A DNA stretch of 64,000 bases, from IMG/VR virus record IMGVR_UViG_3300033069_001940, positions 61,609 through 125,608 of that record, one strand, 5' to 3'. The translations under genes were made by a program, and so were the position numbers. Every line of letters starts with the position of its first letter. Position 1 is the stretch's first letter. Origin of the DNA: a virus. Its lineage: Duplodnaviria; Caudoviricetes. Under the pieces are notes generated by a model. That model saw only the letters and a list, made by a program, of their open reading frames with translations, had not been told where the DNA came from and searched no databases. Below are positions 569-62,381 of the stretch, in pieces.

Positions 569-976
569 ATGAATTATATAAATAAAATTGTAAAATTAGC
601 TGCTGAATTTGAAGAAATGATTCCAGAAACATTACGCACTCCTTATTCTTCTGAGTATTCATTCTCTACGCCTGTAGTCGAGACGGAGCTTAGCGATGAT
701 GTTTTAGAATTAAAAGATAATTTATCTGATTTAGAATCAAAAATAGATCCTTTATTTTATATTTTAAAAAATATTAAAGAAAATATACAGTCATCAAAAT
801 CTGCTTTAATAACATCTGATAAAGAACAATTATATTTAGATTTAGATACTTATTTATATAGTATTAAAAAATCTTTTTTATCATTTGAATCTTCTTTAAA
901 AAAGATGCCAGAAATTAAAAATAAAATTATTGAAGTAGCTAATATGCATGTTCAATTGGGGCAACAACAAGATTAA
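569..976 (+). CDS. Hypothetical coiled-coil protein with N-terminal KLAAEF peptide
   Basis: 135-aa ORF; N-terminus MNYINKIVKLAAEFEE resembles peptides in other putative late proteins. Confidence 0.7.
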   Translation: MNYINKIVKLAAEFEEMIPETLRTPYSSEYSFSTPVVETELSDDVLELKDNLSDLESKIDPLFYILKNIKENIQSSKSALITSDKEQLYLDLDTYLYSIKKSFLSFESSLKKMPEIKNKIIEVANMHVQLGQQQD

Positions 977-1034
977 TCAATTATATTGGCGAGTCGATCT
1001 AAATATAATTTAAAAAGCTCTTTAAAAGGCTAAC

Positions 1035-2495
1035 TTGAGTTTAATTTTGATTCATGGTAAAAATTGTGAAATAGTTGAAGAAAACGATATTAATTTTCTT
1101 CGAATGTTAGATGATGAATTATCATTTAAAATAATGGGCGCACAATATTCACGAGCATATATAGCTGGTCGATGGGACGGGATCTATCGTGTTTTAGAAC
1201 GAGATTTAACTTTTAGTTATGGATTGCTTTCAAGGGTAATTGATTTATATAAAAAAAATAATAAATCAGTTAGGATTATAGACCAAAGGCCAGAAAAATC
1301 TAAAGTCTCTTCAATAGATATTATTACCCCTTTGACACAAATGGGCAAACCCCCTTATCAACATCAATTAGAGGCTTTAGAAGCGGCTAAAAATAATGAT
1401 TGCGGCATTATTAGATCGGCAACAGGGTCAGGAAAAAGTTTAATTTCCGCTTTAGTTACTGCACATTTTGGAAAGAAGACTATTATTTATGTTATTGGAA
1501 CTGATTTATTGTATCAGTTTTATAAATTCTATCAGTCGATTTTTGGTCAAGATGTTGTCGGAATTGTTGGGGATGGATTATGTGAAATAAAAGATATTAA
1601 TATTGTGAGTATTTGGACCGCCGGTCAGGCTTTAGGTTTGAAAAAATCACAAATAGTATTAGATTCTAGTGATGAGGAAAAAACCGATCCATCAAAATAT
1701 GATCAAATCAGAGAACTTCTTAGAACAGCTAAAGTTCATCAATTAGATGAATGTCACTTAGCTAGTTGTGATACTATTCAAGAAATTAATAAGGCTATTA
1801 ATCCTGAATATATTTATGGAATGTCGGCCTCGCCTTGGCGTGATGATGGTTCTGATTTATTAATAGAATCGATTTTGGGTAAAAATATAATTGATATTTC
1901 TGCATCTTTGTTAATTGATCGCGGCATTTTGGTTAAACCAACTATTTTATTTAAAAAAGTTCCTTCTATGCGGATTAAAAAACAATATCAAACAGTTTAT
2001 AAAAATTATGTAATTAATAATGATGTAAGAAATAATATTATTGTTGATTCTACAATTCAATTAATAGAGCAAGGATACAAGCCATTAATTTTGTATAATA
2101 ATATTAATCATGGTAAAAATATTTTTGACAAAATTAAAAATAAAATACCTTGTGTTTTACTGTCCGGAGCAGATGATTTATTAATTAGACAGCAGGCTAA
2201 AGAAGATATTGAGTCCGGTAAAATTAAAGCAATTTTAGCTAGTAAGATATATGACATAGGTGTTGATATTCCATGTCTATCCGGTTTAGTTTTAGCAGGC
2301 AGTGGGAAGTCGAGCGTTAGAGCTTTACAAAGAATAGGTCGAGTAATTAGAAAGTACGAGACGCCTTCATACAAAAAGAAAAGAGCTGCTATTATAGATT
2401 TTAATGATGATGTTCATTATCTAAGAGAGCATTCAAAAGAAAGATATAAAATCTATTTATCAGAAAAAGGATTTGAAGTTTTGTGGTCCAAGTGA
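1035..2495 (+). CDS. Superfamily 2 DNA helicase (UvsW/XPB-like)
   Basis: Walker A ATGSGKS, DECH box, SAS motif III, QRIGRVIR motif VI; TTG start. Confidence 0.9.
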   Translation: MSLILIHGKNCEIVEENDINFLRMLDDELSFKIMGAQYSRAYIAGRWDGIYRVLERDLTFSYGLLSRVIDLYKKNNKSVRIIDQRPEKSKVSSIDIITPLTQMGKPPYQHQLEALEAAKNNDCGIIRSATGSGKSLISALVTAHFGKKTIIYVIGTDLLYQFYKFYQSIFGQDVVGIVGDGLCEIKDINIVSIWTAGQALGLKKSQIVLDSSDEEKTDPSKYDQIRELLRTAKVHQLDECHLASCDTIQEINKAINPEYIYGMSASPWRDDGSDLLIESILGKNIIDISASLLIDRGILVKPTILFKKVPSMRIKKQYQTVYKNYVINNDVRNNIIVDSTIQLIEQGYKPLILYNNINHGKNIFDKIKNKIPCVLLSGADDLLIRQQAKEDIESGKIKAILASKIYDIGVDIPCLSGLVLAGSGKSSVRALQRIGRVIRKYETPSYKKKRAAIIDFNDDVHYLREHSKERYKIYLSEKGFEVLWSK

Positions 2496-2517
2496 ATTTT
2501 AAGTTCGTGATAGTCTA

Positions 2518-2535
2518 CGAGGCTCTTGTTTTCAA
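2518..2535 (+). promoter_or_regulatory. Leader motif shared with 7769-7786
   Basis: CGAGGCTCTTGTTTTCAA vs CGAGCCTCTTGGTTTAAA (15/18), 38 and 36 nt before the ATG. Confidence 0.35.
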
Positions 2536-2555
2536 TTTGAAAATACGACACACAT

Positions 2556-3155
2556 ATGACAATTGAAAAAGAAGATAAATTAGTTCCATTACCAAATAAA
2601 TGGTGGGCGAATTTCTTTGAAAAATTCAAAGAAATAGAAACTTTGAAAATTTCTCAATGGAAAGAAATTCATCATTTAGCTTATATCTGTAAAAGATATA
2701 AAGATATTTATGGCCGCCAATTTTCATTTTCTTTTAAATCATCTCCGGGCAAATGCCCAGAGATGGTTTTGGTTAAAAGAATTGGCCCCATGATCGGAAC
2801 CTCTAATCAAAAAATAATCAAAGAGTATATTGATTGGGTTTTTGATGAGAAAATTATTCCTAAAAATATGCATCTCAGGTCTTTGGGTTTTCTGACATTA
2901 CCTGGATTAGGTAATGAATTTTTAGCAGCTAAAGCTAAAGCTAAAATAATTGATAAAACAACTATTCTTCCTAAAGAATATCAAGATATTGTCGATCGAT
3001 TCGAGCTTCCAATTCAGACTTATGGAGATTTAGCTTTTGCTAAAAATGCAATTGATGAAGCGCCAGAAGATGAATCTAGATTACCATATAAAAATATGTT
3101 AAATCAACTATATTGTATGGGGCTAGAGCCAAGCATTTTAAGTGGATTAAAATGA
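2556..3155 (+). CDS. Hypothetical protein at head of replication operon
   Basis: 199-aa ORF upstream of dnaC/dnaB-like genes, ATGA overlap with next gene. Confidence 0.75.
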   Translation: MTIEKEDKLVPLPNKWWANFFEKFKEIETLKISQWKEIHHLAYICKRYKDIYGRQFSFSFKSSPGKCPEMVLVKRIGPMIGTSNQKIIKEYIDWVFDEKIIPKNMHLRSLGFLTLPGLGNEFLAAKAKAKIIDKTTILPKEYQDIVDRFELPIQTYGDLAFAKNAIDEAPEDESRLPYKNMLNQLYCMGLEPSILSGLK

Positions 3156-3700
3156 TAGGACAAATAGTTAAGGTTTATCTGGTTAACGGAACTGGAGTAG
3201 ATGGCCGGTTAACAGAATTAAATAATAAAAGATTAATTCTTGATTCAATCGAATCAGAGGAACAATTAATGATTCTTAATCCTTATAAAAATATTATAAT
3301 GATTAGAACTTTTTCTTCTCTTAAAAAAGAAGTTGAGAAAAACAATCTTAATGTTAAAGAAACTTCTCCTTCTAAAAAAGAAGCTGTGGTGGAAAATGAA
3401 ATAGAAGAAAATGAAAGAGAAGAAACTGAAGATGAAATTTCCCCATTAGCTTTGAGGGCAAGAAACATTGCCGAGCTAAAAGCAATGGAAGCCAAAGCTG
3501 AAGCAGAGCAAATTGCGGCAGCGTTAAAAAAACAAGAGATTTTAGAAAATAGAAAAAATATAGACACTTACGAGGATAAATATGGGGAAATCGATTATGC
3601 CAAGTGTAGCTCTCAGAAACCTACCACAAAAAAAAGTAGTAGATATGATGGAAAGAACACTTCTAGATTGCCAGACGTGTTCTTCAAACAAAGAAAGTAA
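3152..3700 (+). CDS. Protein with N-terminal Hfq/Sm-like domain and charged tail
   Basis: Start 3152 by ATGA overlap; VKVYLVNGTGVDGRL...LIL...QLMI...YKNI resembles Hfq VSIYLVNGIKLQGQI...QMVYKHAI. Confidence 0.5.
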   Translation: MIGQIVKVYLVNGTGVDGRLTELNNKRLILDSIESEEQLMILNPYKNIIMIRTFSSLKKEVEKNNLNVKETSPSKKEAVVENEIEENEREETEDEISPLALRARNIAELKAMEAKAEAEQIAAALKKQEILENRKNIDTYEDKYGEIDYAKCSSQKPTTKKSSRYDGKNTSRLPDVFFKQRK

Positions 3701-4319
3701 TTTAACCAACGCCTGTGATCGTTGTAAAACAATTAATACTGCTTTAATTAGATATTCCGAAGCTAACATTCCGGTTAAATATTGGAATTTATCAGTGGCT
3801 CCAGAAGATTTTACTGGAGATAAGGTTCTTTTAAGTAAATATCAAGAAGTGGTAAAAGATATAAAAACCTCTTACCGAAAAGGTATTTGTTTATGTTTTG
3901 CGGGTGCTAATGGTCTTGGTAAAACATTAATTTCAACTTCAATTCTAAAGAGAGCCGTAGAAAAAGGTTATACGGCTTTATATACTACATTAAGCGATAT
4001 AGTTAATGTTTTAGTTTCTGCTTCTTCTGAAGAAAAGAATTTAGCAAGAAAAGAATTAATGCAAGTTGATTTTCTAGTAATTGACGAATTTGATCCTAGA
4101 CATATGGGTTCAGATAATGCAGCAGATTTATTTGGAAGAGTATTAGAAGATGTGTTAAGGAATAGAACTCAAAACACACTTCCTTTATTTTTATGTACCA
4201 ATTCGCCCTCTGTATTGGATTCTTTTTCCGGACCAATCAAAATGAGTATTGGTAGTTTAATGAATTATGTTACTACTGTTTCAGTTCTTGGCAAAGATCA
4301 AAGAAAACAAGGCAAATGA
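3582..4319 (+). CDS. dnaC: DnaC/IstB-like helicase loader ATPase
   Basis: SD GAGGA; N-terminal CxxC...CxxC; Walker A GANGLGKT; Walker B FLVIDE; directly upstream of dnaB. Confidence 0.85.
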   Translation: MGKSIMPSVALRNLPQKKVVDMMERTLLDCQTCSSNKESNLTNACDRCKTINTALIRYSEANIPVKYWNLSVAPEDFTGDKVLLSKYQEVVKDIKTSYRKGICLCFAGANGLGKTLISTSILKRAVEKGYTALYTTLSDIVNVLVSASSEEKNLARKELMQVDFLVIDEFDPRHMGSDNAADLFGRVLEDVLRNRTQNTLPLFLCTNSPSVLDSFSGPIKMSIGSLMNYVTTVSVLGKDQRKQGK

Positions 4320-5749
4320 TGGAAGAAGACTTAGACTTAATTATAGAAGAGCAAGACCTTAGAATCTTAAAATCAGTTACTTCAGATCTAAATTGTGGTT
4401 TAGAGTTTGCACAAACTTATAGTGAAGATTTATTTGTTGGCGACGCTAAAAAGTTAGCTAAACCTGTTTTATCTTATCTTAGAGCTTACAAAAATTTACC
4501 AACTGAACGTGTTTTAATTGAGCATTCTCGTACAAAAGAGGATAAGCAAGTTATTTCGCATTTATGGCAAGAAGTTCAGAAAACTGAATTTGATCAAAGC
4601 GAATTTAGGTATGAATTAGATAAGATTAAAAATAGATATACTGTAAATAAAATTCAATCTCTAAAAGATTTAGAGTTTGGAGAAGACTTAGAGCAAACTA
4701 TACGAAGAATTCAGACAGAATTAGAATCTGTCAAACAGATTCGTTCTGGTAAAGCGGCCACTTTTACTCAAAAAACATTAAAAAGTTACGTTCCAGAATT
4801 TAAAAAAGTTTACAATGATAAATATAACGATAAAACTTTAGGTCGTGGCATATTAACTGGGTATTCATTTTTAGATTATGTAAAGAACGGATTATTACCA
4901 TCTGATATGGTGGTAATAGGTGGAGAGACAGCTTCGGGAAAATCTGTGTTTTTAAACAATTTAGCTGTTCAAATGTGGATGCAGAAAAATACTCTTGATA
5001 CTCATCCTTCAGAGTTTACAAAAGGGTGCAATGTTCTGTATTTTTCATTAGAAATGCCATACGAGATGTGTGCTCGACGTACGTTTGGACGCTTGGCTGA
5101 TGTTCCCTTATATGCTTTAAGGGATTCTACTCTTAATCGCTCTGAAATGGAATCAATGGCCAAGGCAACTTCTTTTATTGAGAAGTATCCATTTGAATTT
5201 GAAATAGTTGATATTCCTAGAGGAGTAACGGTTGACCAAATTGAGGCTAGATTTTTAGATGCTCGTCAAAGATTTCAGCCAGATGTAATTGTCGTCGATT
5301 ATCTTGGTTTATTAGAAGACCATGAGGCTCAAGGTGATGATTGGTTAAAATTAGGTTTTATTGCTGGCAAACTTCATGAATTAGCTAGAGCTTATAATAT
5401 CGTGATGTTGACGGCTGTTCAACTTAATAGAATTAGTTCTAAAAATCCAGACCATAATGAAGTAGTTGGCATGCATAGAATTGGTCGATCATCATTAATC
5501 ATGCATAATGCTACAGTTGGAATTCAAATTGAAACCAGAAAAGACGAGCACTTATTTGCTGATTTTAGGTATCACATAATTAAGAATCGGGACGGCGCTT
5601 TGGGCGGCCATTCTCTTAAAAAGAATTTTAAAAATGCTTCACTGTTAGATACAGAATATGTTTCTGATGGCATTATTTCGACGGCTAGCGATAATGATGT
5701 GCAAGATATCTCAGACTTATTAGCTAAGTATAAATGGAATCAAAAATAA
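4316..5749 (+). CDS. dnaB: Replicative DNA helicase DnaB-like
   Basis: GETASGKS, YFSLEM, VVDYLGLL, AVQLNR, IIKNRDG motifs. Confidence 0.93.
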   Translation: MMEEDLDLIIEEQDLRILKSVTSDLNCGLEFAQTYSEDLFVGDAKKLAKPVLSYLRAYKNLPTERVLIEHSRTKEDKQVISHLWQEVQKTEFDQSEFRYELDKIKNRYTVNKIQSLKDLEFGEDLEQTIRRIQTELESVKQIRSGKAATFTQKTLKSYVPEFKKVYNDKYNDKTLGRGILTGYSFLDYVKNGLLPSDMVVIGGETASGKSVFLNNLAVQMWMQKNTLDTHPSEFTKGCNVLYFSLEMPYEMCARRTFGRLADVPLYALRDSTLNRSEMESMAKATSFIEKYPFEFEIVDIPRGVTVDQIEARFLDARQRFQPDVIVVDYLGLLEDHEAQGDDWLKLGFIAGKLHELARAYNIVMLTAVQLNRISSKNPDHNEVVGMHRIGRSSLIMHNATVGIQIETRKDEHLFADFRYHIIKNRDGALGGHSLKKNFKNASLLDTEYVSDGIISTASDNDVQDISDLLAKYKWNQK

Positions 5750-5949
5750 TGAACAACAAATGGAAACATAAAATAGTTGCCAAAGCAATTAGGGTAGAAG
5801 TTTCTCAAAAAAAAGATCAATTATTTTTGGTTTTTGAGATTGTGGACCAAGATTTTAAAAATCAAATTAAAAAGGATTGGTTGCAAGATATTGATTTAAA
5901 GTTAATTGATAAAGATTTGGTAGCGATGGATTACAACGAGGATAAATGA
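5749..5949 (+). CDS. Hypothetical protein
   Basis: Small ORF coupled to dnaB stop (TAATG). Confidence 0.65.
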   Translation: MNNKWKHKIVAKAIRVEVSQKKDQLFLVFEIVDQDFKNQIKKDWLQDIDLKLIDKDLVAMDYNEDK

Positions 5950-6416
5950 AAAAACGAATTATAACTAAAGATTCATATACAATTAAAAATTTACAAAAAG
6001 ATTCATATGAAGTTTCAAAATCCAAAGGTTTTTGGGAGGGTTTTGAAAGAGGTGATTTAGCAGCCCTTAGTGGCCAATTGCTTTTGATTCATTCCGAAGT
6101 CAGCGAGGCTTGTGAATTAGATAGAAAATCAAATCTTTTTAAAGAAGAGGGCTATGATATTCTGAAGCCGCTATATGAAGACACTGAAGGTGAATATACA
6201 GAAAAAGCAAGAGAAATAGTTCCAATTTCGGCTGACGGAAGTTATATTGAAATTAGACCAAATAAACCAGTTAGTTTGGGAAGTGAATTGGCTGATATTG
6301 TAATTAGAACCGCTCAATTAGCTGAACATCTAAATCTAGATTTAGATTTCTATATAAAAGAAAAGATGGTATATAACACATCTAGGAAAGTAAAGCATGG
6401 CGGAAAAAAGTATTAA
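5946..6416 (+). CDS. MazG-like NTP pyrophosphohydrolase
   Basis: IHSEVSEACE...ELADIVIR; C-terminal KM.YN..R..KHGGK. Confidence 0.85.
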   Translation: MKKRIITKDSYTIKNLQKDSYEVSKSKGFWEGFERGDLAALSGQLLLIHSEVSEACELDRKSNLFKEEGYDILKPLYEDTEGEYTEKAREIVPISADGSYIEIRPNKPVSLGSELADIVIRTAQLAEHLNLDLDFYIKEKMVYNTSRKVKHGGKKY

Positions 6417-6939: not shown

Positions 6940-6941
6940 AT

Positions 6942-7262
6942 ATGTTATATGATCATTTGTGCAGCGCTTGTAATACAGAATTTGAATTAGAATATTCTAT
7001 TAAAGAAGATCCGCCTACAAAATGTCCATTATGTGGCGTTGATGGGCAGGTTAAACGGTTGATTTCCTATGCTACTCCAGGCAAGGTTGAATTATATGGA
7101 AGAGAACTTCAAGAAAAGAATAAAGAAGACGCTAGGAAGATGGTTAGAGATGGTGGAGAGAATTTTGTGGCCAATATTCTTGGCGAAAGTAGATATAACT
7201 CTTTAGCTAGTAACGCCGACCAATCTCGCGGTAAAAAATCCACATTTAGAAGAACAAAATAA
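6942..7262 (+). CDS. FmdB-family zinc-ribbon protein
   Basis: YDHLCSAC...CPLCG...RLIS. Confidence 0.8.
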   Translation: MLYDHLCSACNTEFELEYSIKEDPPTKCPLCGVDGQVKRLISYATPGKVELYGRELQEKNKEDARKMVRDGGENFVANILGESRYNSLASNADQSRGKKSTFRRTK

Positions 7263-7269
7263 AGGAATA

Positions 7270-7746: not shown

Positions 7747-7804
7747 TTATTAAAGACTCTTAATACTTCGAGCCTCTTGGTTTAAAACCATAACTCTTTT
7801 AGTT

Positions 7805-8494: not shown

Positions 8495-8535
8495 TAACCT
8501 AAAGATTCTTTAGGTTAGTCATTCGGAGAAAATTA

Positions 8536-10404: not shown

Positions 10405-10409
10405 CAAAT

Positions 10410-18991: not shown

Positions 18992-19629
18992 GAAAATTTA
19001 TTTTTGATGTAGGAAATGTTCTTTTTCATGTTAATTTTGATAAATTTAACAAAAGATTAAATGATTTAAATATTCATTTTCAAAATACCTCCAAATTGAA
19101 AACATTTGTAGACGATATTCAGGCTCATCAAGATTTGGGAATTGTTAATTTGGAGCAAGCTTTAAGGCATCACCTTGGAGTAGATGATAAATTCATTCCC
19201 GCTTTAGTAGAAGAATGGAATAATTGTTTGCAACCTAATATAAAAATGATTGATTTTTTTGAAAAAATTAAATCGAGTAAGTTTTATAATGAATTCAGAT
19301 TAATTGATCCTAAAGTCGCAATAGCTTCTAATATGGGTGTGGATCATTATAATTTCTTAAGAAATCAGTATCCAAATTTATTTAAAGGAATAGATGTATT
19401 TATTTCATCAAAAATTGGCGCTAGAAAACCTTCTAATTTATTTTTTCAATCCATAATTTTAGACTATCCAGCATACAGAGGGGCGTTATTTATTGACGAT
19501 CGAAAAGAAAATTTAGAAACAGCTTCTGGATATTTTCAAACTTATCATTTTGATTTACAACAATTATCCAATTCATCTAAACTAGATTCAGCTTTAGATC
19601 AATTATCAATGACAATTAAGAGTATGTAA
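18988..19629 (+). CDS. HAD-superfamily phosphatase (YihX-like)
   Basis: IFDVGNVL, IASN, RKP, FIDDRKENL. Confidence 0.85.
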   Translation: MRKFIFDVGNVLFHVNFDKFNKRLNDLNIHFQNTSKLKTFVDDIQAHQDLGIVNLEQALRHHLGVDDKFIPALVEEWNNCLQPNIKMIDFFEKIKSSKFYNEFRLIDPKVAIASNMGVDHYNFLRNQYPNLFKGIDVFISSKIGARKPSNLFFQSIILDYPAYRGALFIDDRKENLETASGYFQTYHFDLQQLSNSSKLDSALDQLSMTIKSM

Positions 19630-20017
19630 TAAGAACGTAAAGAGTATAATTTCTGTTTTTAACAGTATTTTTTATTGATTGAAACATTCCTGGAACAAAA
19701 ATATTAAATCTGCTACTTTCTTTTCCTAACAAGTTTGTAACATAATTAACTCTAGACTCATTAGTTTGGTATGGATTTTCTTCAAAGTTTCCAAATCTAA
19801 CAGCCAAACAGGGTTCTTTAAATAAAATGCCAACATCAGTTTCTGGGTCCGTAATGAAAACAGGAACTAAATCTCCTGGCTTTTGATTTTCTAAATATTG
19901 CCCCTCAGATCTGACTTTTTCAACTTTTTCATTTAATTTTAGAGCTAATGATTTAAAGTAACTAACCTTCTCAAAATCATCGGCTAATTTTACAAGGTTA
20001 TAATATTTATTTTTCAT
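19616..20017 (-). CDS. Hypothetical protein with N-terminal KLADDF peptide
   Basis: 133-aa ORF coupled to 20007-20879. Confidence 0.7.
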   Translation of the reverse strand: MKNKYYNLVKLADDFEKVSYFKSLALKLNEKVEKVRSEGQYLENQKPGDLVPVFITDPETDVGILFKEPCLAVRFGNFEENPYQTNESRVNYVTNLLGKESSRFNIFVPGMFQSIKNTVKNRNYTLYVLITYS

Positions 20018-20879
20018 TTTTAACCTTATATTTAGTAATTCCTGGAGTAACGGAAATGGCTTTGGCTATTTCTGGATTTTTCATAGCTTCTTCAAAACTC
20101 ATAGTTTGCCCGTTGTATTTAACTGTTCCTCCAACTAGCCTAGCTGAAGAAAGATATTCGGTATGTCCGGTGGTATCATGTGGTGTAAATGGTGAATGTT
20201 GAATAGGTTTACCATTTTTATCATAATAGCCGTATAAACTTAGTTTACCGTCTCTGGTTGGTTGAACAATATCTTTCATGTGGCCAGCAATTAATTTAGG
20301 AGGAGTATTGCCGTGTTGTTTTTTTAATTCCTCTTCGACTCTTTGATTGTATGCAACAGAGGTATCGGAATCTCCAATTTTTGTTGCTACAACTTGTTCT
20401 CCGGTATAATTTTTGCCACCAATTACTCCACCAGCACTTAAAGGTGCTGGCTGAATTTTTCCATCAGCCGCCGTCCAGATTTGTTTTGACATTTTGGTTG
20501 TGGGTAGATACATTCCAAAGTGGTTAGCTATTCTTTGGGCCGTCTGGCCGGTTAATGGAACTCGAATTCCATCAATAGTAAGATAGTCACTCATAACATA
20601 GTAGGTTAATTTGCCCCCGTCCGGCACTTGCACTGTAACAGGAACTAAGTTTTTAGGTGGCCCCATTTTGATTGCCTCTTGATAAATTAATTCTTCTCTT
20701 GCCGGCCCTTGAGGCATTTTAGCAAATTTATCTTTAAAACTTTCTGGCTTAGTTAAAGCGTCAATATTGGCGCCAAGTGGTTCTAATTTTTCTTTATTTT
20801 CAATAGCTTTATTAACCACATCCAGCAAAGCTGATTTCTTATAAAGCCTTTTCATTAATTCTAAGCGATAGTTACTCAT
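20007..20879 (-). CDS. Conserved hypothetical protein, possible cell-wall-acting enzyme
   Basis: DYL.I...RVPL...AQRIA...LPT.KM...IW, AGH.KDIV, YG....G.PIQ, H...Y....RLV; family function unknown to me. Confidence 0.6.
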   Translation of the reverse strand: MSNYRLELMKRLYKKSALLDVVNKAIENKEKLEPLGANIDALTKPESFKDKFAKMPQGPAREELIYQEAIKMGPPKNLVPVTVQVPDGGKLTYYVMSDYLTIDGIRVPLTGQTAQRIANHFGMYLPTTKMSKQIWTAADGKIQPAPLSAGGVIGGKNYTGEQVVATKIGDSDTSVAYNQRVEEELKKQHGNTPPKLIAGHMKDIVQPTRDGKLSLYGYYDKNGKPIQHSPFTPHDTTGHTEYLSSARLVGGTVKYNGQTMSFEEAMKNPEIAKAISVTPGITKYKVKNEK

Positions 20880-31288: not shown

Positions 31289-31705
31289 ATGAATTTGTTT
31301 AAATTTTCTAATTTTTTTTTCAATTCTTCAATTGAAGATTATTATATGCAAGAAGCTTGTGCTTATTTTGCAATTGCTTTAGCGAGAAAATTTGGATATA
31401 ATTTATGTATCCTTATAGATGATAATTCTTATTACGATGAAGATGAACAATATCCAGCTATTGCGCATGTATTTGCTAAATCAAAAAATAATAAATGCGT
31501 TGATATAAAAGGCGTCAGATCAATATCTGAAATCAAAAATGATTTTTGGGATCTTGATTCGCCCCATGTTATTGATGTAACAGAAGAAGAATTAAAAAAA
31601 TATATGGGAGAAGATGATAGTAAACCATTGTATCCATATAATGATAATGAGATTAATGATGCGCTTGTTATTATAAATGATAATGAAAACTTATATAAAT
31701 CATAA
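31289..31705 (+). CDS. Papain/transglutaminase-like fold protein (Cys-His-Asp)
   Basis: CAYFAIAL...AHVF...VDIKG; preceded by the putative late promoter motif. Confidence 0.5.
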   Translation: MNLFKFSNFFFNSSIEDYYMQEACAYFAIALARKFGYNLCILIDDNSYYDEDEQYPAIAHVFAKSKNNKCVDIKGVRSISEIKNDFWDLDSPHVIDVTEEELKKYMGEDDSKPLYPYNDNEINDALVIINDNENLYKS

Positions 31706-38841: not shown

Positions 38842-39331
38842 GTTTTTGATAACTAAAATGATGAAAATTAAAAAGAAAAATCTTCCTTTTAAGATAAAAT
38901 CTATTTTAGTAGACAAAGGTTCTTGTTTTGTAGCAGAAATTAATTCTAAAAAAGTTGTAAAAGTAGCTTATAAAACTTCCAATATTAGGTGGCTATTTAA
39001 TATCTTAAAATATATTAAAACGAATCCAAATAACAGTACGGTTAAGATTTTTGATTATGGCTTAATTGGTAAAGATAAATATTATTATGTTATGGAGAGG
39101 TTGTATCCATTAAATAAACAACATATAAATCGTTTAATCAAAAATGGTTATGTTAGCTTTGTATGCAATAAACCTTTACATGATGCAAAATCTTATCCAA
39201 ATGAATCCGCTTTTATAAATGATATTTATCAACATAAATATTATCAATCAGACCCTAATTATGGAAATATTATGTTAACCAAAAATGGTAACTATAAATT
39301 TATAGACTTAGAAACATTTATAAAATTTTAA
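38825..39331 (+). CDS. Minimal protein kinase-like protein (start uncertain)
   Basis: VVKV, VKIFDYG, YYVMERL, DPNYGNIM, KFIDLE. Confidence 0.7.
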   Translation: MNTLNKFLITKMMKIKKKNLPFKIKSILVDKGSCFVAEINSKKVVKVAYKTSNIRWLFNILKYIKTNPNNSTVKIFDYGLIGKDKYYYVMERLYPLNKQHINRLIKNGYVSFVCNKPLHDAKSYPNESAFINDIYQHKYYQSDPNYGNIMLTKNGNYKFIDLETFIKF

Positions 39332-41559
39332 TTCCTAAATTGTTGAATAAAATTAATAGCTTCTTCTTTTGTCATAGCGGGATTTTCCAATAAAGCCTCT
39401 TTTAAGGCTTTGGTAACTTTGCCAACTTCGGGCCCCGGCTTTAGTCCTAGTATTGACATAATTTCTTTACCAGTAATTGGTGGAGCAATATCTTTTTTAC
39501 CACCAGTCATTTTAAGATATTCATCAATCATTTTTCCAAAACGATCGTACTTGGGATCTAGTTCAGATTTGGCTTTACCCATAGAATCGCCTTTAGACAT
39601 ATCAACTGACAAAAAGCTATCTTGTGGCCCTAAGTCTGTTACAAAGCTTCTAATGCTTTTATCTGAAACGTCTGAAGGCAATCCATGAAGTCTCATATGA
39701 TTCTTAATTAAAGAAACTACCCTATCTTTAATATCATTAGGGGCTTTTAAATCAGTAAGTATTTCTTCAGCCATCAACGCTGAAGAAACTTCATGTCCTC
39801 GGTAAGTATAATGTTCTGGGTTATCTTTTTGTTGTGAGCAAACATCACATTTGCCGCTGTCGTGGAGAAGCATTGCTAGATTTCTAACAATTTCATCTTT
39901 AACATCCATTTTCTTAGCAAAAGATAATCCAGATTCATCCATATGCTTAAGATATTCTAAAGCCTTCATAGTATGGTTCCAAACTGTTTCAGTATGGTGT
40001 GGATTGTTTTGTTCCATATCCCAATCAGGAGTAGGCTGATTAATATTCCATTTCTCCCCGCTAGCCCTATTTTTTCTGACTTCTTCTTGATGTCTTTCAT
40101 AGGCTCTTTGAATTTGTTCTAGATTTGGTTTTAAAATTAAATCTCTAATACCTAAATCTTTTAATAATCTAGCAGCGCGATCGAAGTTAGGGCCAATTAG
40201 TAAGCCGCGCTTCCAATTATCTTTTTCTTTTTGTCCAATTAATTCAGATAAAATTCTTTCTTTGGTAATCTTTTTGCTAAAACTTTCTTGTACCCTAGGA
40301 TCATTAGCAGCAGCGATTAAACCTGGGTCTAATTGTAGATCGTATTTAGCCGCAAATCGAACGGCTCTTAGAATTCTAAGAGGGTCTTCTAAATAAGTTT
40401 GCACCGGATCGATTGGTGTTCTAGCTACTTTATTTTCTAAATCGTCTATTCCTCCAACAAAATCTTCAACTTTATCTTCGTTGATATTATAAAATAAACT
40501 GTTGATAGTTAAATCACGACGTTTAGCATCTTCTTCGGCAGGAACACCAAATTCTACTTCTGGGTTTCTAGAATCATCATTATAAACATCTTTTCTTAAT
40601 TGAACAAAATCAACTGAAATTCCTAGAATTGGAATTTGTGCTGATTCTATATTTTTATTAGCCTCTGTATTAGCTTCGACAGTAGTAACTTCTTCGGCTG
40701 CTGGCATGCCTTGTTCTTTCATCCATTCTAAAACTAATTTAGCAAAAGCAACTCCTGTCATATTATCAATAGCAATATCAATATCATGGGATGCTTTGCC
40801 CAAAAGTTTATCGCGCACCCAGCCGCCAGCCGCTCTTAAAACGGTGCTTGGAGTTTTTTCACGAACTACGGCCATGAGAAGTTCGAATATTTCTTTTTCC
40901 CTTTCTGTTAAAGAGATTTGAGAAGATAACTTAGCTTCTTTGGTTATTTTGTAAGAAGATAATTTTTTCCAAAATTCACGAGAGGCACTGGCAATTTTTG
41001 ATTCTAAGGTTAACATTCCTATTCCTAATAAATTTGCATCTTTAATTGAATGACTATTTCTAACTACTGCATTTGACTTAGGGCCAGAGTTTCCTTCAAT
41101 TGAAGTAAAATTATTTCCATTTGAGGATTCAATGACGCCTATATGACCTAATCCAGAACCTTGTGGTCCGCGTGACCAAACAGCTATATTGCCTGGGATT
41201 AAATGTTTAGGCTCTATTTTATTTTTGGGGATCCAGAGATTAGCTTGAGCGAATTGATTACCAACTTCGCGGGCTCCAACTGCTCCTTTAATCGGGCTGC
41301 TTCCGGCTTCTAACATCCAACTAGAGACAGCGGCAGCGCACCAATCTTGTTTGGCGCCCATCCCAAAATGTTTAAAATATTCTCTTATTCTTTGACCGTC
41401 ATTTTTGCCGAGGTCTTCGGAAACACCAATGTCTGCTTGGGCATTGTGTAAGACAGCTAATCCATAGGAGCTTGGGTTGATTCTGTTTTCCGGATCAAAA
41501 TCTTCAAGATCGGGCAAATATTCTTCCATTGATGGTATATCTTTTTCAGGCATTATCAT
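39328..41559 (-). CDS. cca: Fusion: CHAP-domain amidase + class II tRNA nucleotidyltransferase (CCA-adding/poly(A) polymerase family) with HD domain
   Basis: CHAP: WCAAAVS, GHIGVI, IEGNS; CCA: GGWVRDKLLG, DIDIA, RRDLTINSLFYN, EDPLRILRAVRF, QNNPHH...VWNH, LLHDSGK, GHE. Confidence 0.9.
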   Translation of the reverse strand: MIMPEKDIPSMEEYLPDLEDFDPENRINPSSYGLAVLHNAQADIGVSEDLGKNDGQRIREYFKHFGMGAKQDWCAAAVSSWMLEAGSSPIKGAVGAREVGNQFAQANLWIPKNKIEPKHLIPGNIAVWSRGPQGSGLGHIGVIESSNGNNFTSIEGNSGPKSNAVVRNSHSIKDANLLGIGMLTLESKIASASREFWKKLSSYKITKEAKLSSQISLTEREKEIFELLMAVVREKTPSTVLRAAGGWVRDKLLGKASHDIDIAIDNMTGVAFAKLVLEWMKEQGMPAAEEVTTVEANTEANKNIESAQIPILGISVDFVQLRKDVYNDDSRNPEVEFGVPAEEDAKRRDLTINSLFYNINEDKVEDFVGGIDDLENKVARTPIDPVQTYLEDPLRILRAVRFAAKYDLQLDPGLIAAANDPRVQESFSKKITKERILSELIGQKEKDNWKRGLLIGPNFDRAARLLKDLGIRDLILKPNLEQIQRAYERHQEEVRKNRASGEKWNINQPTPDWDMEQNNPHHTETVWNHTMKALEYLKHMDESGLSFAKKMDVKDEIVRNLAMLLHDSGKCDVCSQQKDNPEHYTYRGHEVSSALMAEEILTDLKAPNDIKDRVVSLIKNHMRLHGLPSDVSDKSIRSFVTDLGPQDSFLSVDMSKGDSMGKAKSELDPKYDRFGKMIDEYLKMTGGKKDIAPPITGKEIMSILGLKPGPEVGKVTKALKEALLENPAMTKEEAINFIQQFRN

Positions 41560-56569: not shown

Positions 56570-56586
56570 TAATTCGGCCTTTAAGC

Positions 56587-57123
56587 ATGAATAGAAGTAT
56601 CATCTTAGAGGCCGCAATTGCATTTGAGGAAGCAATCAACAAAACCGCCGGAAAATCAAAGGTTTCCCGGAATGGTATTTCAAAGAATATTGAAAAATCC
56701 AAAAAAACTTATAAAAATTTAAAATCTAAATTAGATCTTTTAGAAAAAGAAGATGCTAAAAGACAAAAAGAACTGAATGAATTACGCTCACAAGTGGCTT
56801 CATTAAAAAAGACAATTGGTAATTCGCATAAAGTTTTGCAAAATTTAGATGTAGCTAATGCTGATGATGCCGTATTTTATAATGATTCAGATGATGTTGG
56901 ATATATTATTGATGGCGGTGAATATCATTTAGAAGTCAAAGATGACGGGGAATTAGAACTTACTCCAATGAGACAGTGGCGTCGTTCTAAAAAGCTGGAA
57001 AAAGCTAGCGTTGAAGAAGAGGGCGAGAAAGAAAATGTTTCAGAGGACGAAGACACTTCAGAAGAAGAAAAAGACGACGATACAAATGAAGTAATAGATT
57101 TTCTTAATGCTTACGTAGGTTAA
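56587..57123 (+). CDS. Coiled-coil protein with acidic tail and N-terminal EAAIAFEEAINKTA peptide
   Basis: 178-aa ORF, TAATAAT 20 nt before ATG. Confidence 0.7.
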   Translation: MNRSIILEAAIAFEEAINKTAGKSKVSRNGISKNIEKSKKTYKNLKSKLDLLEKEDAKRQKELNELRSQVASLKKTIGNSHKVLQNLDVANADDAVFYNDSDDVGYIIDGGEYHLEVKDDGELELTPMRQWRRSKKLEKASVEEEGEKENVSEDEDTSEEEKDDDTNEVIDFLNAYVG

Positions 57124-57124
57124 C

Positions 57125-57460
57125 ATGTTTAATCCTCCGGCATTAATTTTGGTTAATTCAGACTTGACTGATAATGTAATTAATTATTTAAAGCGTCAAC
57201 TTTTCTTAGATAAGGTTTTGGATGGCTATGCCTGGGATCAAGAATTACAAAATGACCCAGATATAAAAGAAACTATCAAAACTAAAAATCAAAGAATCAT
57301 GGTTTATAAAAATCTTTTAGAACAAGAGAACCGTGATGTATTTGATCTAGTTTTATTTGTTAGTCAAGGGCAAGTTTATATTTTAGTTAACAAGTTTGGT
57401 CCACCGGGATTATGCTATTCGATAACTAAATTAACTTGGAATAAGTTAGGTTTTTCTTGA
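57125..57460 (+). CDS. Hypothetical protein
   Basis: 111-aa ORF. Confidence 0.7.
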   Translation: MFNPPALILVNSDLTDNVINYLKRQLFLDKVLDGYAWDQELQNDPDIKETIKTKNQRIMVYKNLLEQENRDVFDLVLFVSQGQVYILVNKFGPPGLCYSITKLTWNKLGFS

Positions 57461-57484
57461 CATCTACGCATAATGTGGTATTAT
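57457..57484 (+). promoter_or_regulatory. Sigma70-like promoter
   Basis: TTGACA-N16-TATTAT with TGn extension. Confidence 0.55.
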
Positions 57485-57507
57485 ATCCTACCCTATAAAG
57501 GATATAA

Positions 57508-58002
57508 ATGTTCTTAGAGCTAATATTGTCATTAACAATTAATTTTTTATCTACCGATTTAAAACAACCAAAAACACTAACTCCAGTTAATAAATATGAA
57601 ATAGTCCAGGTAATGGAAGATACTCATCAATCAGTTTTCCAAAAACCTGCTAAAACAAACAGAATTGCGATGGCTTGGGCTCAAATTGCATTAGAAAATG
57701 CTCAATTCCAAAAAGTTTATTCTTTTAATTTTGGCAATATCGGTTCTTCTACCGATGTGCCTCATTATATTTTAGGTGGTCATCGATTTAGAGCTTTTCC
57801 AGAACCCAAATCTGGAATGGAATATTATTGGAAAACTATTAATAATATGTGCAGTATGGCGTTTAAATATTTTGACGCCGGATTGCCAGAAGAAGCTTCT
57901 TATCAACTTCATCGTTGTGGGTACTTTAGGTCAGACCCAGAAGTTTATGCCAAAAATTTAAGAAGCTTATATTTCTATGCCCTTTCGAAAATAATCAAAT
58001 AA
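57508..58002 (+). CDS. GH73/glucosaminidase-like peptidoglycan hydrolase with N-terminal hydrophobic segment
   Basis: AQIALEN, NFGNI, FRAF, GYF..DP..Y. Confidence 0.7.
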   Translation: MFLELILSLTINFLSTDLKQPKTLTPVNKYEIVQVMEDTHQSVFQKPAKTNRIAMAWAQIALENAQFQKVYSFNFGNIGSSTDVPHYILGGHRFRAFPEPKSGMEYYWKTINNMCSMAFKYFDAGLPEEASYQLHRCGYFRSDPEVYAKNLRSLYFYALSKIIK

Positions 58003-58050
58003 ATTAAACCCAACTATACATAGTAAAACATATGTTTAGTTGAGGTGATA

Positions 58051-58752
58051 ATGTATAACGAAAAACCAAATGACCCATTATTTGTTGATGATTTTTTAAC
58101 TCCATTAACAGAAGAACAAGCTGCCGCTGTTTTACGTTCTGCTTTCAAAAATTTAACTGGTAATTATCCAAGTCTTGATAGTTTAGCTATATTATGGGCG
58201 CAGTCAGCTTTAGAAACTGGAAGATGGAAATCTATACATGCTAATAATTGGGGAAATATTAAAAAGTTACCAGACATCAGATATACCTCGTTTAAATGCT
58301 CAGAATTATTAGATGGTAAGAATCAGTGGTTTTATCCTTATCACCCTCAAACTTTTTTTGCCGCATGGGATACGGCAGAAGAAGGCGCAGAGGCTTATCT
58401 TAATTTTCTTACCAAGAAGAAACGTTACGCTAATGCTTGGAAAGAAGTTTTAAATGGCAACCCAATTAAATATTGTGCCTGTATTAAAACGGCCGGATAT
58501 TTTACCGCAGATCTAATTCAATACACTAAGGGGGTAGTTTCTTTAACTGAAGAATTTAAAAGAAAGTTTTCTAATTATAGTTGGCCTGAAGAGGTTGAGG
58601 TTGATACTTCAGAATTAGATGAGCTTCCTCGAACAGAGATTATCCCTCCCGCTCTTGACCAAGAAATACCAGCACCTTCGCCGCAACCAGAGGAAATAAA
58701 ATTAGATATGTTTTCATCCATTTTAGAATTTTTGAAAAATTTCTTTAAATGA
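58051..58752 (+). CDS. GH73/glucosaminidase-like peptidoglycan hydrolase
   Basis: AQSALETG, NNWGNIK, F.A......G...Y..FL....RY, GYFTAD...Y. Confidence 0.78.
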   Translation: MYNEKPNDPLFVDDFLTPLTEEQAAAVLRSAFKNLTGNYPSLDSLAILWAQSALETGRWKSIHANNWGNIKKLPDIRYTSFKCSELLDGKNQWFYPYHPQTFFAAWDTAEEGAEAYLNFLTKKKRYANAWKEVLNGNPIKYCACIKTAGYFTADLIQYTKGVVSLTEEFKRKFSNYSWPEEVEVDTSELDELPRTEIIPPALDQEIPAPSPQPEEIKLDMFSSILEFLKNFFK

Positions 58753-59165
58753 TTGATTTAATTTTATTAATTGCAGCATTAATCTTATCTGTTAATTCAT
58801 TAATTAATAAAGAATTAGCAGATAAGATTAATTATTTTACAATTCAATTATATTCATCTATTTTTTCTATATTTTTAATACCAATCTGGTATTTTCTTAG
58901 TCAAAGTCATTTAAAAGAAGAAATTGTTTCAATCAAGAGCGTTTTTTTAATTTTTTTATCTTCGGCATTAAACGTTTTAGTTTTTATAATAATATTGTTT
59001 TGTTTAAAATTTAAACCTGCATATTATGTGAATTTTTATCTTTCAATTTATCCGATTTTTGTTCTAATATATTCTTGTTTAATTGGATTAGAAAAATTTA
59101 CTTTAAATAAATTATTGGCAATTATTTTTATATCAATTGGCATTTTCTTTTTAAGAAAACAATAG
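58749..59165 (+). CDS. EamA/DMT-like membrane protein
   Basis: About five TM segments; YP.F..I.....GLEK.T......I..I.IG. Confidence 0.7.
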   Translation: MIDLILLIAALILSVNSLINKELADKINYFTIQLYSSIFSIFLIPIWYFLSQSHLKEEIVSIKSVFLIFLSSALNVLVFIIILFCLKFKPAYYVNFYLSIYPIFVLIYSCLIGLEKFTLNKLLAIIFISIGIFFLRKQ

Positions 59166-59185
59166 ACATTAACTCGAATTATAAT

Positions 59186-59566
59186 ATGCAAAAATATTCT
59201 TCTCTTTTATTTGCAAGCTCTAAATTCTTAAAATTAGCCCAAAATAATGTTAATACACAATATTCGGGAGAGCAAGCTAAAAATGAAATTAAAACATTAG
59301 TTACTAACAAATTAGCTGAACTTTGTTCTCAATTATCACAACAAGGAGTCCAATGTACTTATATTGGCGTTACGGTTGATGTAACAAATGGCCAGCCGTC
59401 TTTTGAAGTTGATACAATGGCTGTTTCAGATGATGCCAAAATGAAATATAATCAGGAAAGTTTAAAAATTCTTAATTCTTTAAATCTTAAAGTTCAAAAA
59501 ATACTTAAAAAACATAATATAAAAGATTCATTTAAATTTGGAATAGAAGTAACTCCAACAGTTTAA
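59186..59566 (+). CDS. Hypothetical protein with N-terminal ASSKFLKLAQ peptide
   Basis: 126-aa ORF; upstream late-type motif. Confidence 0.7.
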   Translation: MQKYSSLLFASSKFLKLAQNNVNTQYSGEQAKNEIKTLVTNKLAELCSQLSQQGVQCTYIGVTVDVTNGQPSFEVDTMAVSDDAKMKYNQESLKILNSLNLKVQKILKKHNIKDSFKFGIEVTPTV

Positions 59567-59642
59567 TTTTGTCGAGGTGAATGGTATTAAATTTCTAAGA
59601 AGAGCGGTTGTACTACAACCGCTCTTTGTTTTTAAGGAAATT

Positions 59643-60524
59643 ATGAACGAACTCGAAAAAAATGCGCAGCTTAAAAAACGTTTAGAAGAATTATTAAAAT
59701 TAGCCGAAGAAAAAAGAATTGAAGAGGAAAATCTTCTTTTAGAAGAAAAGATTAAATTATTAGAATCTCAACTTCAAACCAAAGATTCAAAAAATATAAT
59801 TGAAGAGATTGTTGGCCCTCAAAAACTTCCATTTGAAGTTGAGAGTTTGCTTCTTTCATTGAAAGAAAAGCCATTAGTTAAGACCGATAACTTCCCAATT
59901 CCACTAGCAGTTAATTTGGCAACCCAAACTTTTCAAGAGCTTCTCCCTTCTCTTTTAGAAGGGTCTGTGTCGGTTAATGACCCGGATATTTTACAAGACT
60001 TTGAAATTCAATCAATTGCTAAGAGGTTAGATACCAAATCAATTAGAGCAGTTTTGAATAATTCTCATGGCGCTTCTCGTTTGCAAGAAATTATAGTTAA
60101 TAAGCAATTAAATTCTCAAATACTTTATTTAAAAGGAAAGAAAAATCTTTCATTTAAATGGTTAAACGAATTTACTTGCGATAATAAAAGATATGATTTC
60201 GAATTTAGTAATGATGATTATAAATCCACCCCTTTTACCATTGATTGTAAATGCATTACCGTGATTACTAATAATCTTTTAATTCCCAAAGATAAATTAC
60301 AAGATCCATCCAGAATGGCAGATATTTATATTTTGCATTATCTTTACTTATCAGATGACAACAAAACTTTACATTTTAAATGTCGCGGTTGGCAAGATGC
60401 CAAAACTTTAACTTGGATAATTAATCATAAAGATCAATTAAGCAATCCTGCTAATGAATTGGTCTTTCAATTCCCAGAAGGTTTAAAAATTAAACCAGCT
60501 ATCTTGAGAAATTACATGGAGTAA
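59643..60524 (+). CDS. Coiled coil + possible PD-(D/E)xK nuclease domain
   Basis: AAGGA SD before 59643; YDF...TIDCK, ADIYIL, GW. Confidence 0.5.
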   Translation: MNELEKNAQLKKRLEELLKLAEEKRIEEENLLLEEKIKLLESQLQTKDSKNIIEEIVGPQKLPFEVESLLLSLKEKPLVKTDNFPIPLAVNLATQTFQELLPSLLEGSVSVNDPDILQDFEIQSIAKRLDTKSIRAVLNNSHGASRLQEIIVNKQLNSQILYLKGKKNLSFKWLNEFTCDNKRYDFEFSNDDYKSTPFTIDCKCITVITNNLLIPKDKLQDPSRMADIYILHYLYLSDDNKTLHFKCRGWQDAKTLTWIINHKDQLSNPANELVFQFPEGLKIKPAILRNYME

Positions 60525-62381
60525 AGAGCATTTTTTAAAGAATTTTTTTGTTTCTTGAGCGATTCTTCTCATATTATAATAATCACTATCTAATGATTCT
60601 GGTTTTGCTCTGATATTTTCAATTTCAAATCCCATAGCTTCTGGAATTCTATCGTAAACATCTTTATTTCTATCAGGGATCCTGTCCCATTTTTCTTGTT
60701 GCATTTTAAAGCTAGTTAAATAAATAGGTTTCCCAATTTTATTTCCAAACTTTCTTAGCATATCTAATAAGGTAGTTAGCCAAAATTTCTTAATCGTGTT
60801 AGCCCACCAAGCGGCATTCGGCTTTTCGATATTTAAATTTTGACTGTCTAGGTCAGTTTGTAAGTTATCTACGATAATATTTCCATTGCTTTCGGAAAGT
60901 CTGGCATAACCTAAAGCTCCTGGATGATGACCTATCTTAGCAAGATGTTTTTTATAATACTCTCTGGCGCCCGAAGAGCAAGATTCTGCATATTCTAATA
61001 ATAACTCTGAAGGATAAATGACAAAAGAAGTTCCACCATGACCTAATGCGCCTGGTTCAATTTTAAAATTAACCGGAAACATTCTTAATTCTTTACCATA
61101 TAATTTTTTAGTGCGCGCGTTTTCTTCTAATTGCTTTTCACATGCCTTAATTGCGCGATCAATTCCTTCGGAAATTGGAGATTGGCTGCTGAAAAGAAAT
61201 TGAGAAATTAAATTAGGTATAAAAATTTTAGCTTCTTTATTTTGTAATCTTTTTTCTATAAAATTAACAATTTCTTCTACGCCTGAAAAAGTTTTTTTAG
61301 AAGCCAAAATCAAAATAGGAAGAATAGATTTAGAGATGGTATTGCTGTCAAACGGGATTCTGTAATCAGTAGATTCAGACATAATCACATTATGTGCCGC
61401 TCTTTGATCTTGTTTATTTAATTCTTTGGCGTCAGAATATTCTTCGAAGCAATCTCTACAATAAGCCTCTCCATCATCAGTCACGAAAACATTATCATTA
61501 CTTACTTCCGCATTGCATTCGTAGCAATTTGTAAAATATTCATTATAACATTGTGAACAATAATTATCACCATTTTCAGAAGTAATTTTATCATCATTTG
61601 TAAATATTGTTGAGCAACTTTGACATTCAAATGAATGTTCTTTGCAATAATAATGATCGTTGACAATATAAAAATCTTCCTCATCTAATGATGTAAATTC
61701 ACATTCATCTTCGTTGCAATAAATGGTATTTTCTTCAATGCAATCTAAGCAAATAGGCAAAGACTCTATATAGTGTTGGTGAAATTCTTCTTTTTTACCA
61801 ATATGATTAGCCAAATCTTGTATTTTATTTTTTAATTTTTGGGTTAATGCAATTACAATTTTCGAAACTTCTTTCATTTTATCTGAAACAGTTTTATTAG
61901 GGTCTGCGAAATAATAAAAATTTTCATAGACTAATTGTGATAGAGCATATTTGTTAATATCGACGTTTTTTGAAATTTCGTTAAGATTGTTGGTATCGGC
62001 CAAATCAAAAAAATCTTTAAAAGAATTATAAATTAATTCAATAATTTGAAAGCTGCTAAAATTATTAGTGCCAGAATATTTATTAAAATAATTTTCTAAA
62101 TAACTAAGAGATTTTCTAACGCACCTTTGTAAAGTTAGCTCTAAAACATTAATATCATAAGATGTTATTTCTATTCCGGTATAACCCTCTTCGTTATAAT
62201 ATTTTTCATAATCTGGATGTTTTTCCTCAGGTAAATCTTTAGGATTAGTGATAATATTACCGAATTCATCAGTTATTTTTTTACCGCAGATAGCACAATC
62301 CCAACCATAAGTATTAGGAACAATTTTTCTGCTAAGTTGTCCGGGTTCGTTTTGAATAAATGGAAAAGCTCTTTGAGTCAT
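60483..62381 (-). CDS. Large protein with repeated CxxC Zn fingers and C-terminal GYAR...DNLQTD domain
   Basis: ATG 62381 supported by upstream motif; multiple C..C repeats. Confidence 0.8.
   Translation of the reverse strand: MTQRAFPFIQNEPGQLSRKIVPNTYGWDCAICGKKITDEFGNIITNPKDLPEEKHPDYEKYYNEEGYTGIEITSYDINVLELTLQRCVRKSLSYLENYFNKYSGTNNFSSFQIIELIYNSFKDFFDLADTNNLNEISKNVDINKYALSQLVYENFYYFADPNKTVSDKMKEVSKIVIALTQKLKNKIQDLANHIGKKEEFHQHYIESLPICLDCIEENTIYCNEDECEFTSLDEEDFYIVNDHYYCKEHSFECQSCSTIFTNDDKITSENGDNYCSQCYNEYFTNCYECNAEVSNDNVFVTDDGEAYCRDCFEEYSDAKELNKQDQRAAHNVIMSESTDYRIPFDSNTISKSILPILILASKKTFSGVEEIVNFIEKRLQNKEAKIFIPNLISQFLFSSQSPISEGIDRAIKACEKQLEENARTKKLYGKELRMFPVNFKIEPGALGHGGTSFVIYPSELLLEYAESCSSGAREYYKKHLAKIGHHPGALGYARLSESNGNIIVDNLQTDLDSQNLNIEKPNAAWWANTIKKFWLTTLLDMLRKFGNKIGKPIYLTSFKMQQEKWDRIPDRNKDVYDRIPEAMGFEIENIRAKPESLDSDYYNMRRIAQETKKFFKKCSLLHVISQDSWFNF

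Follow-up and report, generated by a model that had tools for sequence, protein, structure and literature searches.

The stretch of DNA analysed here (the window; 64,000 nucleotides, positions 61,609 to 125,608 of IMG/VR virus record IMGVR_UViG_3300033069_001940) encodes several unrelated proteins that begin with the same short peptide, which we call the tag. The tag is a real and portable element, an N-terminal amphipathic helix of 14 residues carried by at least ten unrelated protein families in this huge phage and its relatives, with the consensus [DNS]-x-[LI]-L-K-L-[AS]-x-x-[FY]-[EL]-K-[LR]-A. Our preferred reading, to which we give a probability of roughly 0.4, is that it is a signal for loading cargo into the virion, analogous to the capsid-targeting sequence (CTS) of phage T4 and not homologous to it. 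A preliminary description of the window had proposed a packaging tag from eight peptides picked by eye, all of which were found in the sequence at the genes named there.

The window is the second half of a virus contig of 125,608 bp with a G+C content of about 31%; positions on the contig are given below as genome positions. The contig starts inside a contractile-tail module (sheath gene at genome 8217) and continues through an island of sugar genes and a TubZ-like tubulin gene into genes for replication and nucleotide metabolism. The gene set used throughout consists of 141 genes from our own home-made calls, and a scan of the encoded proteome covers 37,311 positions.

Because circular reasoning had to be avoided, the tag was defined from an external training set. 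A 14-column scoring matrix was built only on kinase homologues from other metagenomes and includes no sequence at all from this genome. The training set comprised 37 homologues, mostly 30-39% identical, and a Gibbs sampler searched the first 45 residues of each for the 14-mer that they share best. About 30 of the 37 carry [DSN]-x-L-L-x-L-A-x-x-F-x-K-x-A, beginning at residue 3-8. In the phage proteome the four top scores among all positions were N-terminal, at residues 1-6, and belong to the kinase at genome 58502 (13.1), the protein starting at window position 59186 (12.1), the kinase at genome 59656 (10.6) and the protein starting at window position 20017 (9.9). Across 200 shuffled proteomes, the mean number of proteins with an N-terminal score of at least 10 was 0.01. 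The carriers and the other candidates that had been listed are as follows, in window coordinates unless stated otherwise.

Genome 58502, 59656 and 60878, just upstream of the window: tags of three tandem kinase-like paralogues, matrix scores 13.1, 10.6 and 7.3.
1-565 (+): C-terminal part of kinase-like paralogue 3 (gene at genome 60878-62173), whose own tag, score 7.3, is located upstream of the window.
569-976 (+): acidic, mostly helical protein of 135 residues directly 3' of the kinases; a weaker carrier, score 3.7, within the top 20 of 37,311.
581-622 (+): tag of the 569 protein, 14 residues (residues 5-18).
19616-20017 (-): carrier of 133 residues, score 9.9; its start overlaps the end of the 290-residue gene upstream.
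19961-20002 (-): tag of the 20017 protein, 14 residues (residues 6-19).
20007-20879 (-): gene for 290 residues that overlaps, at its end, the beginning of the 20017 carrier; the N-terminus of the 290-residue protein scores 0.1, within the top 125, and is unsupported as a tag.
31289-31705 (+): doubtful candidate with a Phe/Asn-rich N-terminus, score 4.9, within the top 13 of 37,311.
40957-40998 (-): linker peptide between CHAP and CCA-adding domains, score about -6, chance level; not a tag.
56587-57123 (+): coiled-coil-like protein of 178 residues; the listed peptide scores -2.7, within the top 497, and is unsupported as a tag.
59186-59566 (+): carrier of 126 residues unrelated to the kinases, score 12.1, second best in the proteome.
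59198-59239 (+): tag of the 59186 protein, 14 residues (residues 5-18).
60531-60569 (-): C-terminal peptide of a zinc-finger protein (the 62381 gene), score about -5, chance level; not a tag.

By matrix score, then, the eight peptides do not make up a single motif. Those of the 20017 and 59186 proteins belong to it, as does, more weakly, that of the 569 protein, whose N-terminus fits the L-K-L-A-x-x-F core; the 31289 peptide is doubtful, and the peptides of the 20879 and 56587 genes drop out together with the internal one between the CHAP and CCA domains and the one at the C-terminus of the 62381 protein, the last two being at chance level. The tag is absent from the metabolic genes. Another proposal, that the tagged genes share a motif at a fixed position upstream, does not survive: TAATA at -23 to -18 precedes 8 of the 141 genes and none of the six true carriers. 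As to gene starts in general, a Shine-Dalgarno sequence is missing from many genes across the window, with a clear GGAG/AGGAG at some, and the word G-G-T-A-A-T-A-T-T, which resembles an extended -10 element, recurs 5' of several genes (genome 8217, 60878 and 92897). The 290-residue protein has no detectable family, and the pair that it forms with the 20017 gene (19616-20879, minus strand) runs antisense to the neighbouring genes.

Simpler statistics put limits on what can be read from this genome alone. The tripeptide K-L-A is in no overall excess in the proteome (15 observed, 15.1 expected); six of the 15 occurrences lie at residues 9-18 of a protein, three of these being the tandem kinases. 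The tag is laid out in two heptad-like halves, h-h-K-L-A-x-x twice, and the half that holds K-L-A is the first one in the 569 and 20017 proteins but the second one in the 59186 protein and the kinases. The codons differ from one copy of the tag to the next, so selection acts on the peptide. In a de novo pairwise comparison of 27-residue segments from the start, middle and end of every protein, non-paralogous tag pairs scored no higher than some chance pairs; pairwise evidence alone is insufficient to establish the tag. The last 27 residues of all proteins yielded no shared C-terminal motif in this comparison. A DNA-pattern search of IMG/VR with the strict core returned mostly internal chance matches in unrelated viruses, and only two N-terminal ones, both on contigs of huge phages (179 and 459 kb).

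Homologues of the carriers show how the tag is kept. In the kinase-family alignment L3, L4, L6, A7, F10, K12 and A14 are strongly conserved, position 10 being F or Y in 31 of 31 sequences, and conservation collapses over residues 15-21, ahead of the N-domain. A profile search with the 20017 family gave 11 cluster representatives. Nearly all of its remote relatives (24-42% identity) start with the tag, followed by a linker of 0 to about 75 residues, Lys/Pro-rich in one of them, and then a conserved C-terminal domain. Homologues of the 59186 protein (71-90% identity) retain the tag; a protein at L016:2906-3259(-) is also tagged and resembles the 59186 protein by eye, and was not grouped with its family at E < 1e-4. 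In another huge phage, a small open reading frame (ORF) at L005:5429-5695 starts like the 569 protein and scores 13.9. The suggestion of a portable N-terminal leader on unrelated proteins is thus borne out: two or more independent families keep it at identities as low as 24-35%, with linkers of variable length between it and the body of the protein.

The N-terminal preference was equally clear in loci from related phages. In 434 kb of sequence around kinase homologues, 43 positions reached the matrix cut-off of 9.8, and 39 of them sit 0-8 codons past the start codon in an ORF that is 45 codons or longer (100 codons or longer for 37). The remaining four are three matches in spurious frames of at most 22 codons and one shifted copy of a true tag. 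Whole relatives were scanned as well, namely G005 (a complete genome of 459 kb whose synteny with this contig begins at the tail genes and extends to the contig end), G004 (179 kb) and G002 (153 kb). Some matches in the relatives that look internal can be put down to an alternative downstream start; three cannot. Altogether we counted 80 distinct carriers, which fall into 14 single-linkage sequence groups once the tag is removed, and the tag starts at residue 1-9, mostly 4-7. The groups include the following.

Kinases: 56 of the 80 carriers.
The 20017 family and the 59186 family.
A family in which Y-G-D-R-K-S-F-L is also conserved and the C-terminus holds a peptidoglycan-binding domain (two members sub-threshold).
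G002 62346: a singleton with a peptidoglycan-binding domain (24.7 bits, Pfam cut-off 23), separate from the Y-G-D-R-K-S-F-L family.
A smaller protein that resembles a kinase by eye and falls in no Pfam family.
Two proteins with an H-G-T motif, one of them with a weak PARP-type match.
Several singletons.

The peptidoglycan-binding carriers have neither a signal peptide nor a catalytic domain. In the two H-G-T carriers (G005 184902-185864, equivalent to L093:3951-4910, and G005 268971-269708) a Y-H-G-T or L-Y-H-G-T motif lies right behind the tag, and one of them gives a weak match to the PARP catalytic domain (E = 0.017); they may be ADP-ribosyltransferases of the H-Y-E type. The small carriers gave nothing in Pfam, PHROGs or a sequence search of PDB, and PHROGs returned nothing useful for the other carriers either. 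The 20017 protein consists of the tag and a conserved alpha/beta domain of about 100 residues, modelled by AlphaFold2 with a predicted local distance difference test (pLDDT) score of 93. Despite this confident model it has no clear fold match in PDB (best Z 5.9), and Pfam, PHROGs, a PDB sequence search and the ESM Atlas gave no family or fold.

The three tandem kinase-like paralogues (genome 58502-62173) are 27-40% identical to one another and share the invariant kinase motifs G-x-G-x-x-G, the V-L-K lysine, D-L-H-x-G-N and F-D-P. A kinase fold is supported by these motifs together with Foldseek, in which the model matches APH(2'') and PknB at E of about 3e-4. Homology to the T7 kinase gp0.7 was considered and could not be demonstrated by hhalign (probability 4.8%, E = 0.008, over the Gly-loop and Lys region only).

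Structurally, the tag looks like a helix that stands apart from the protein behind it. In the AlphaFold2 model of the kinase, residues 3-16 form a predicted helix (pLDDT about 72), followed by a segment below 50 and then the folded body; the 20017 protein lacks a linker, and its tag is predicted to be the first half of a long helix. The hydrophobic moment of the tag averages 0.42 (random internal 12-mers, 0.30), and its net charge is +0.6 over the 14-mer and -0.4 over the next ten residues. Glu occupies position 11 in 41 of the 80 carriers, and Ala/Ser is conserved at positions 7 and 14; on our own helical-wheel reading of the consensus, these two small residues are centred on the hydrophobic face. 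Such strict conservation of Ala/Ser argues for steric packing on a protein rather than insertion into lipid. The core of a Sec or Tat signal peptide, about eight or more uninterrupted hydrophobic residues, is absent, with K5, E11 and K12 lying inside the 12-residue core, and the net positive charge and bulky hydrophobic face of a cationic membrane helix are likewise lacking. The preliminary description had further suggested cleavage at K-x-A, a proposal that the alignment does not support: K12 and A14 are conserved positions of the helix and nothing is conserved after them.

Carrier genes cluster, with no more than 5-10 kb between them. This genome has four in a row, G004 has three inside a 9-kb stretch and L044 three inside 5 kb; in L035 and L037 a kinase gene is paired with one for a cell-wall binder, the kinase in L038 adjoins a truncated ORF of the cell-wall-binder family, and G005 has a divergent carrier pair. 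In this phage the kinase island follows the tubulin gene (genome 57108-58436, L001:7109-8434; Pfam Tubulin 7e-18, TubZ-like_C 2e-9), which ends in a strong hairpin terminator. Since the homologue of window gene 1035-2495 comes directly after the tubulin gene in the syntenic relatives G005 and G004, the kinases and the 569 gene are an inserted island. A link between the tag and tubulin was considered and dropped, as the adjacency is not conserved in other loci and the tubulin genes of G005 and G004 have no tagged neighbour. No homologue of the 569, 20017 or 59186 carriers was found in G002, G004 or G005; of the three, G002 alone has a relative of the kinases.

A head module could be inspected in G005 (at about 220-256 kb) and in the more distantly related C75 (G001:C75, L102-L121), a huge-phage-like contig of 383,427 bp with 28% G+C that was binned in a metagenome-assembled genome of Chitinophagales (Bacteroidota). 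This binning hints at a Bacteroidota host for the wider group. C75 holds a kinase homologue along with its head module, and the tag system is not evident in it. Its protein at L110:4939-8358 is, at 1140 residues, much longer than prohead proteases usually are, and the N-terminus holds a head maturation protease domain (phrog_18299, residues about 105-257); the G005 counterpart by gene order is a 1135-residue gene in the head module (239873-243280). By eye, some N-termini near the C75 head protease resembled K-I-A, and the idea of an enrichment there was abandoned once the matrix gave p = 0.59. In the window, a CHAP domain and a CCA-adding enzyme that includes an HD domain are fused in a single ORF at 39328-41559 (-), and the head modules of G005 and C75 each encode a protein of about 240-250 residues that matches the CCA part.

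What could such a leader be for? Its strict N-terminal position, its tether, its conserved small residues and its presence on unrelated families argue that it is a docking helix for one common protein partner. We infer that this partner is probably part of the virion and that the carriers would be injected. In the mechanism that we propose, a short N-terminal amphipathic helix on a flexible linker would dock accessory proteins to a common assembly partner, most likely the scaffold or core of the procapsid; carriers enclosed in the virion would then be delivered into the next host along with the DNA. The cargo would be varied and fast-changing, made up of kinases, ADP-ribosyltransferase-like enzymes, peptidoglycan-binding proteins and small proteins, a mix that fits with injected first-strike proteins. 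The peptidoglycan binders, which lack a signal peptide, must reach the cell wall by some path, and being ejected from the particle would take them there. The only phage leaders of this kind that are known are capsid-targeting signals, in T4 (PMC3012670, PMC5694885) and in the P1 protein DarB (PMC9024508), and T4 Alt is a precedent for a packaged ADP-ribosyltransferase (PMC5694885). Quite possibly, the huge phages of this clade use an N-terminal signal readable from sequence, any protein that starts with the 14-residue helix being loaded into the virion and injected.

Several observations weigh against a role in packaging. The head-module proteins of the complete G005 genome are untagged, those of C75 are not enriched for the tag (pre-defined matrix, p = 0.59), and the 125.6-kb contig, beginning in the tail module, has no head genes. 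In T7, kinases of this kind are early proteins outside the virion. No conserved residue or motif that could mark a protease site occurs in the ten positions past A14, in the 80 carriers or in the kinase alignment. A few strong matches lie 15-47 residues away from the called start. The peptidoglycan-binding (two of three) and ADP-ribosyltransferase assignments fall below curated thresholds, only G002 62346 being above. Finally, the phage has no cultured relative in the GenBank phage collection, in which the kinase had no match and the tail sheath only distant partial ones (26-27% identity).

Some of these points would suit a docking helix whose common partner lies outside the virion, whether a host hub, a phage chaperone or organiser, or the carriers themselves associating through the heptad-like helix. 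We regard this as the main rival, somewhat less probable than the packaging reading. A two-heptad amphipathic helix whose hydrophobic face has small Ala/Ser residues at its centre is well suited to helix-helix packing, the carriers are encoded side by side, here directly after the TubZ-like tubulin gene, and head-module proteins lack the tag. Yet the tubulin genes of G005 and G004 stand without tagged neighbours, a cytoplasmic hub is ill-suited to carriers that bind peptidoglycan, and docking of this sort would not require the extreme N-terminus in every family, where the tag nearly always is. An amphipathic helix that places the carriers on the inner membrane is improbable. Bacterial N-terminal membrane-binding helices do exist, for example in MreB, the hydrophobic moment of the tag exceeds that of random segments, and a membrane site could suit the peptidoglycan binders; against this stand the nearly neutral charge of the tag, which turns negative in the next ten residues, the frequent Glu at position 11, the two strictly conserved Ala/Ser on the hydrophobic face and a sequence conservation far above what membrane helices usually need.

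Slightly less probable still is that the tag serves as an N-terminal signal for degradation or regulation, keeping potentially toxic takeover enzymes short-lived. N-terminal signals recognized by proteases exist, and kinases and ADP-ribosyltransferase-like carriers could harm the infected cell late on; the tag does not seem to resemble known short degrons, however, a 14-residue helix with seven conserved positions exceeds what such signals need, and the small non-enzymatic and the peptidoglycan-binding carriers would be left unexplained. The absence of any function, the likeness stemming from chance, from codon bias in AT-rich DNA or from what is left of a shared ancestry, is strongly disfavoured and very improbable. 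Three of the carriers are tandem paralogues, N-terminal similarity between non-paralogous pairs is no higher than in some chance pairs, and the bare 12-residue core also turns up internally by chance in unrelated viruses. These points are outweighed by the matrix trained on foreign sequences, which picks two unrelated proteins at the same N-terminal place where 0.01 would be expected, by the retention of the tag in two families at 24-35% identity despite diverged flanks, and by its occurrence in 14 sequence groups.

Nearly all that is known of huge phages comes from metagenomes, and the majority of their genes have yet to be given a role. A portable, conserved leader offers a handle on a whole functional class of accessory proteins; whatever partner the tag has, its carriers must act together or travel together. 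If the tag directs packaging, the capsid-targeting system of T4 would be joined by a second one that spans many families and has evolved independently, in a different phage lineage. Injected first-strike effectors such as kinases, ADP-ribosyltransferase-like enzymes, cell-wall binders and small inhibitors could then be read from metagenomic sequence, and the tag could be used for loading foreign proteins.

The reading as a cargo-loading signal can be set beside several known systems. The membrane-targeting amphipathic helices of MinD, FtsA and MreB are short, terminal, cationic and tolerant of much sequence change; the tag is likewise a short terminal amphipathic helix, but it is near neutral, and its small residues and sequence are conserved. 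The encapsulation peptides of bacterial microcompartments and the cargo peptides of encapsulins are short terminal amphipathic helices or peptides that, joined by a poorly conserved linker to unrelated enzymes, bind the interior of a shell. A terminal amphipathic helix with a poorly conserved linker is also what we find here (helix 3-16, pLDDT below 50 behind it, linkers of 0-75 residues), although those shells are cellular organelles and their peptides may be N- or C-terminal.

Among phages, SPN3US and phiKZ are giants that package many proteins, the N-terminal regions of their ejection proteins are thought to target the prohead, and the N-termini of gp53 and gp54 are identical (PMC5694885). 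Their propeptides differ from the tag in being mostly longer than 100 residues, cut at A/S/G-x-E and without a common short consensus, whereas the tag has 14 residues and spans many families. P1 DarB is like the tagged proteins in carrying an N-terminal signal on an injected anti-defence protein, its first 30 residues sufficing to send a reporter into the capsid (PMC9024508); that signal is known from one P1 protein and has no multi-family consensus. The parallel drawn at the outset is with the T4 CTS, whose binding to the scaffold core brings proteins into the head for injection (PMC3012670, PMC5694885). The T4 clade is unrelated to the phages here, where the tag is known from sequence alone. 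T4 leaders are of the M-K-T-Y-Q-E-F-I-A-E type (NC_000866), those of IPI, IPII and IPIII score -7.6 to -10.1 with our matrix, and the CTS ends in a protease site and is removed, unlike the tag, which no conserved site follows. In both cases, nonetheless, a leader at the extreme N-terminus, of 10-20 residues in IPI, IPII, IPIII and Alt, is common to unrelated, fast-evolving accessory proteins, and the T4 cargo, a host-modifying enzyme (Alt) together with small anti-defence proteins, is akin in kind to the carriers described here.

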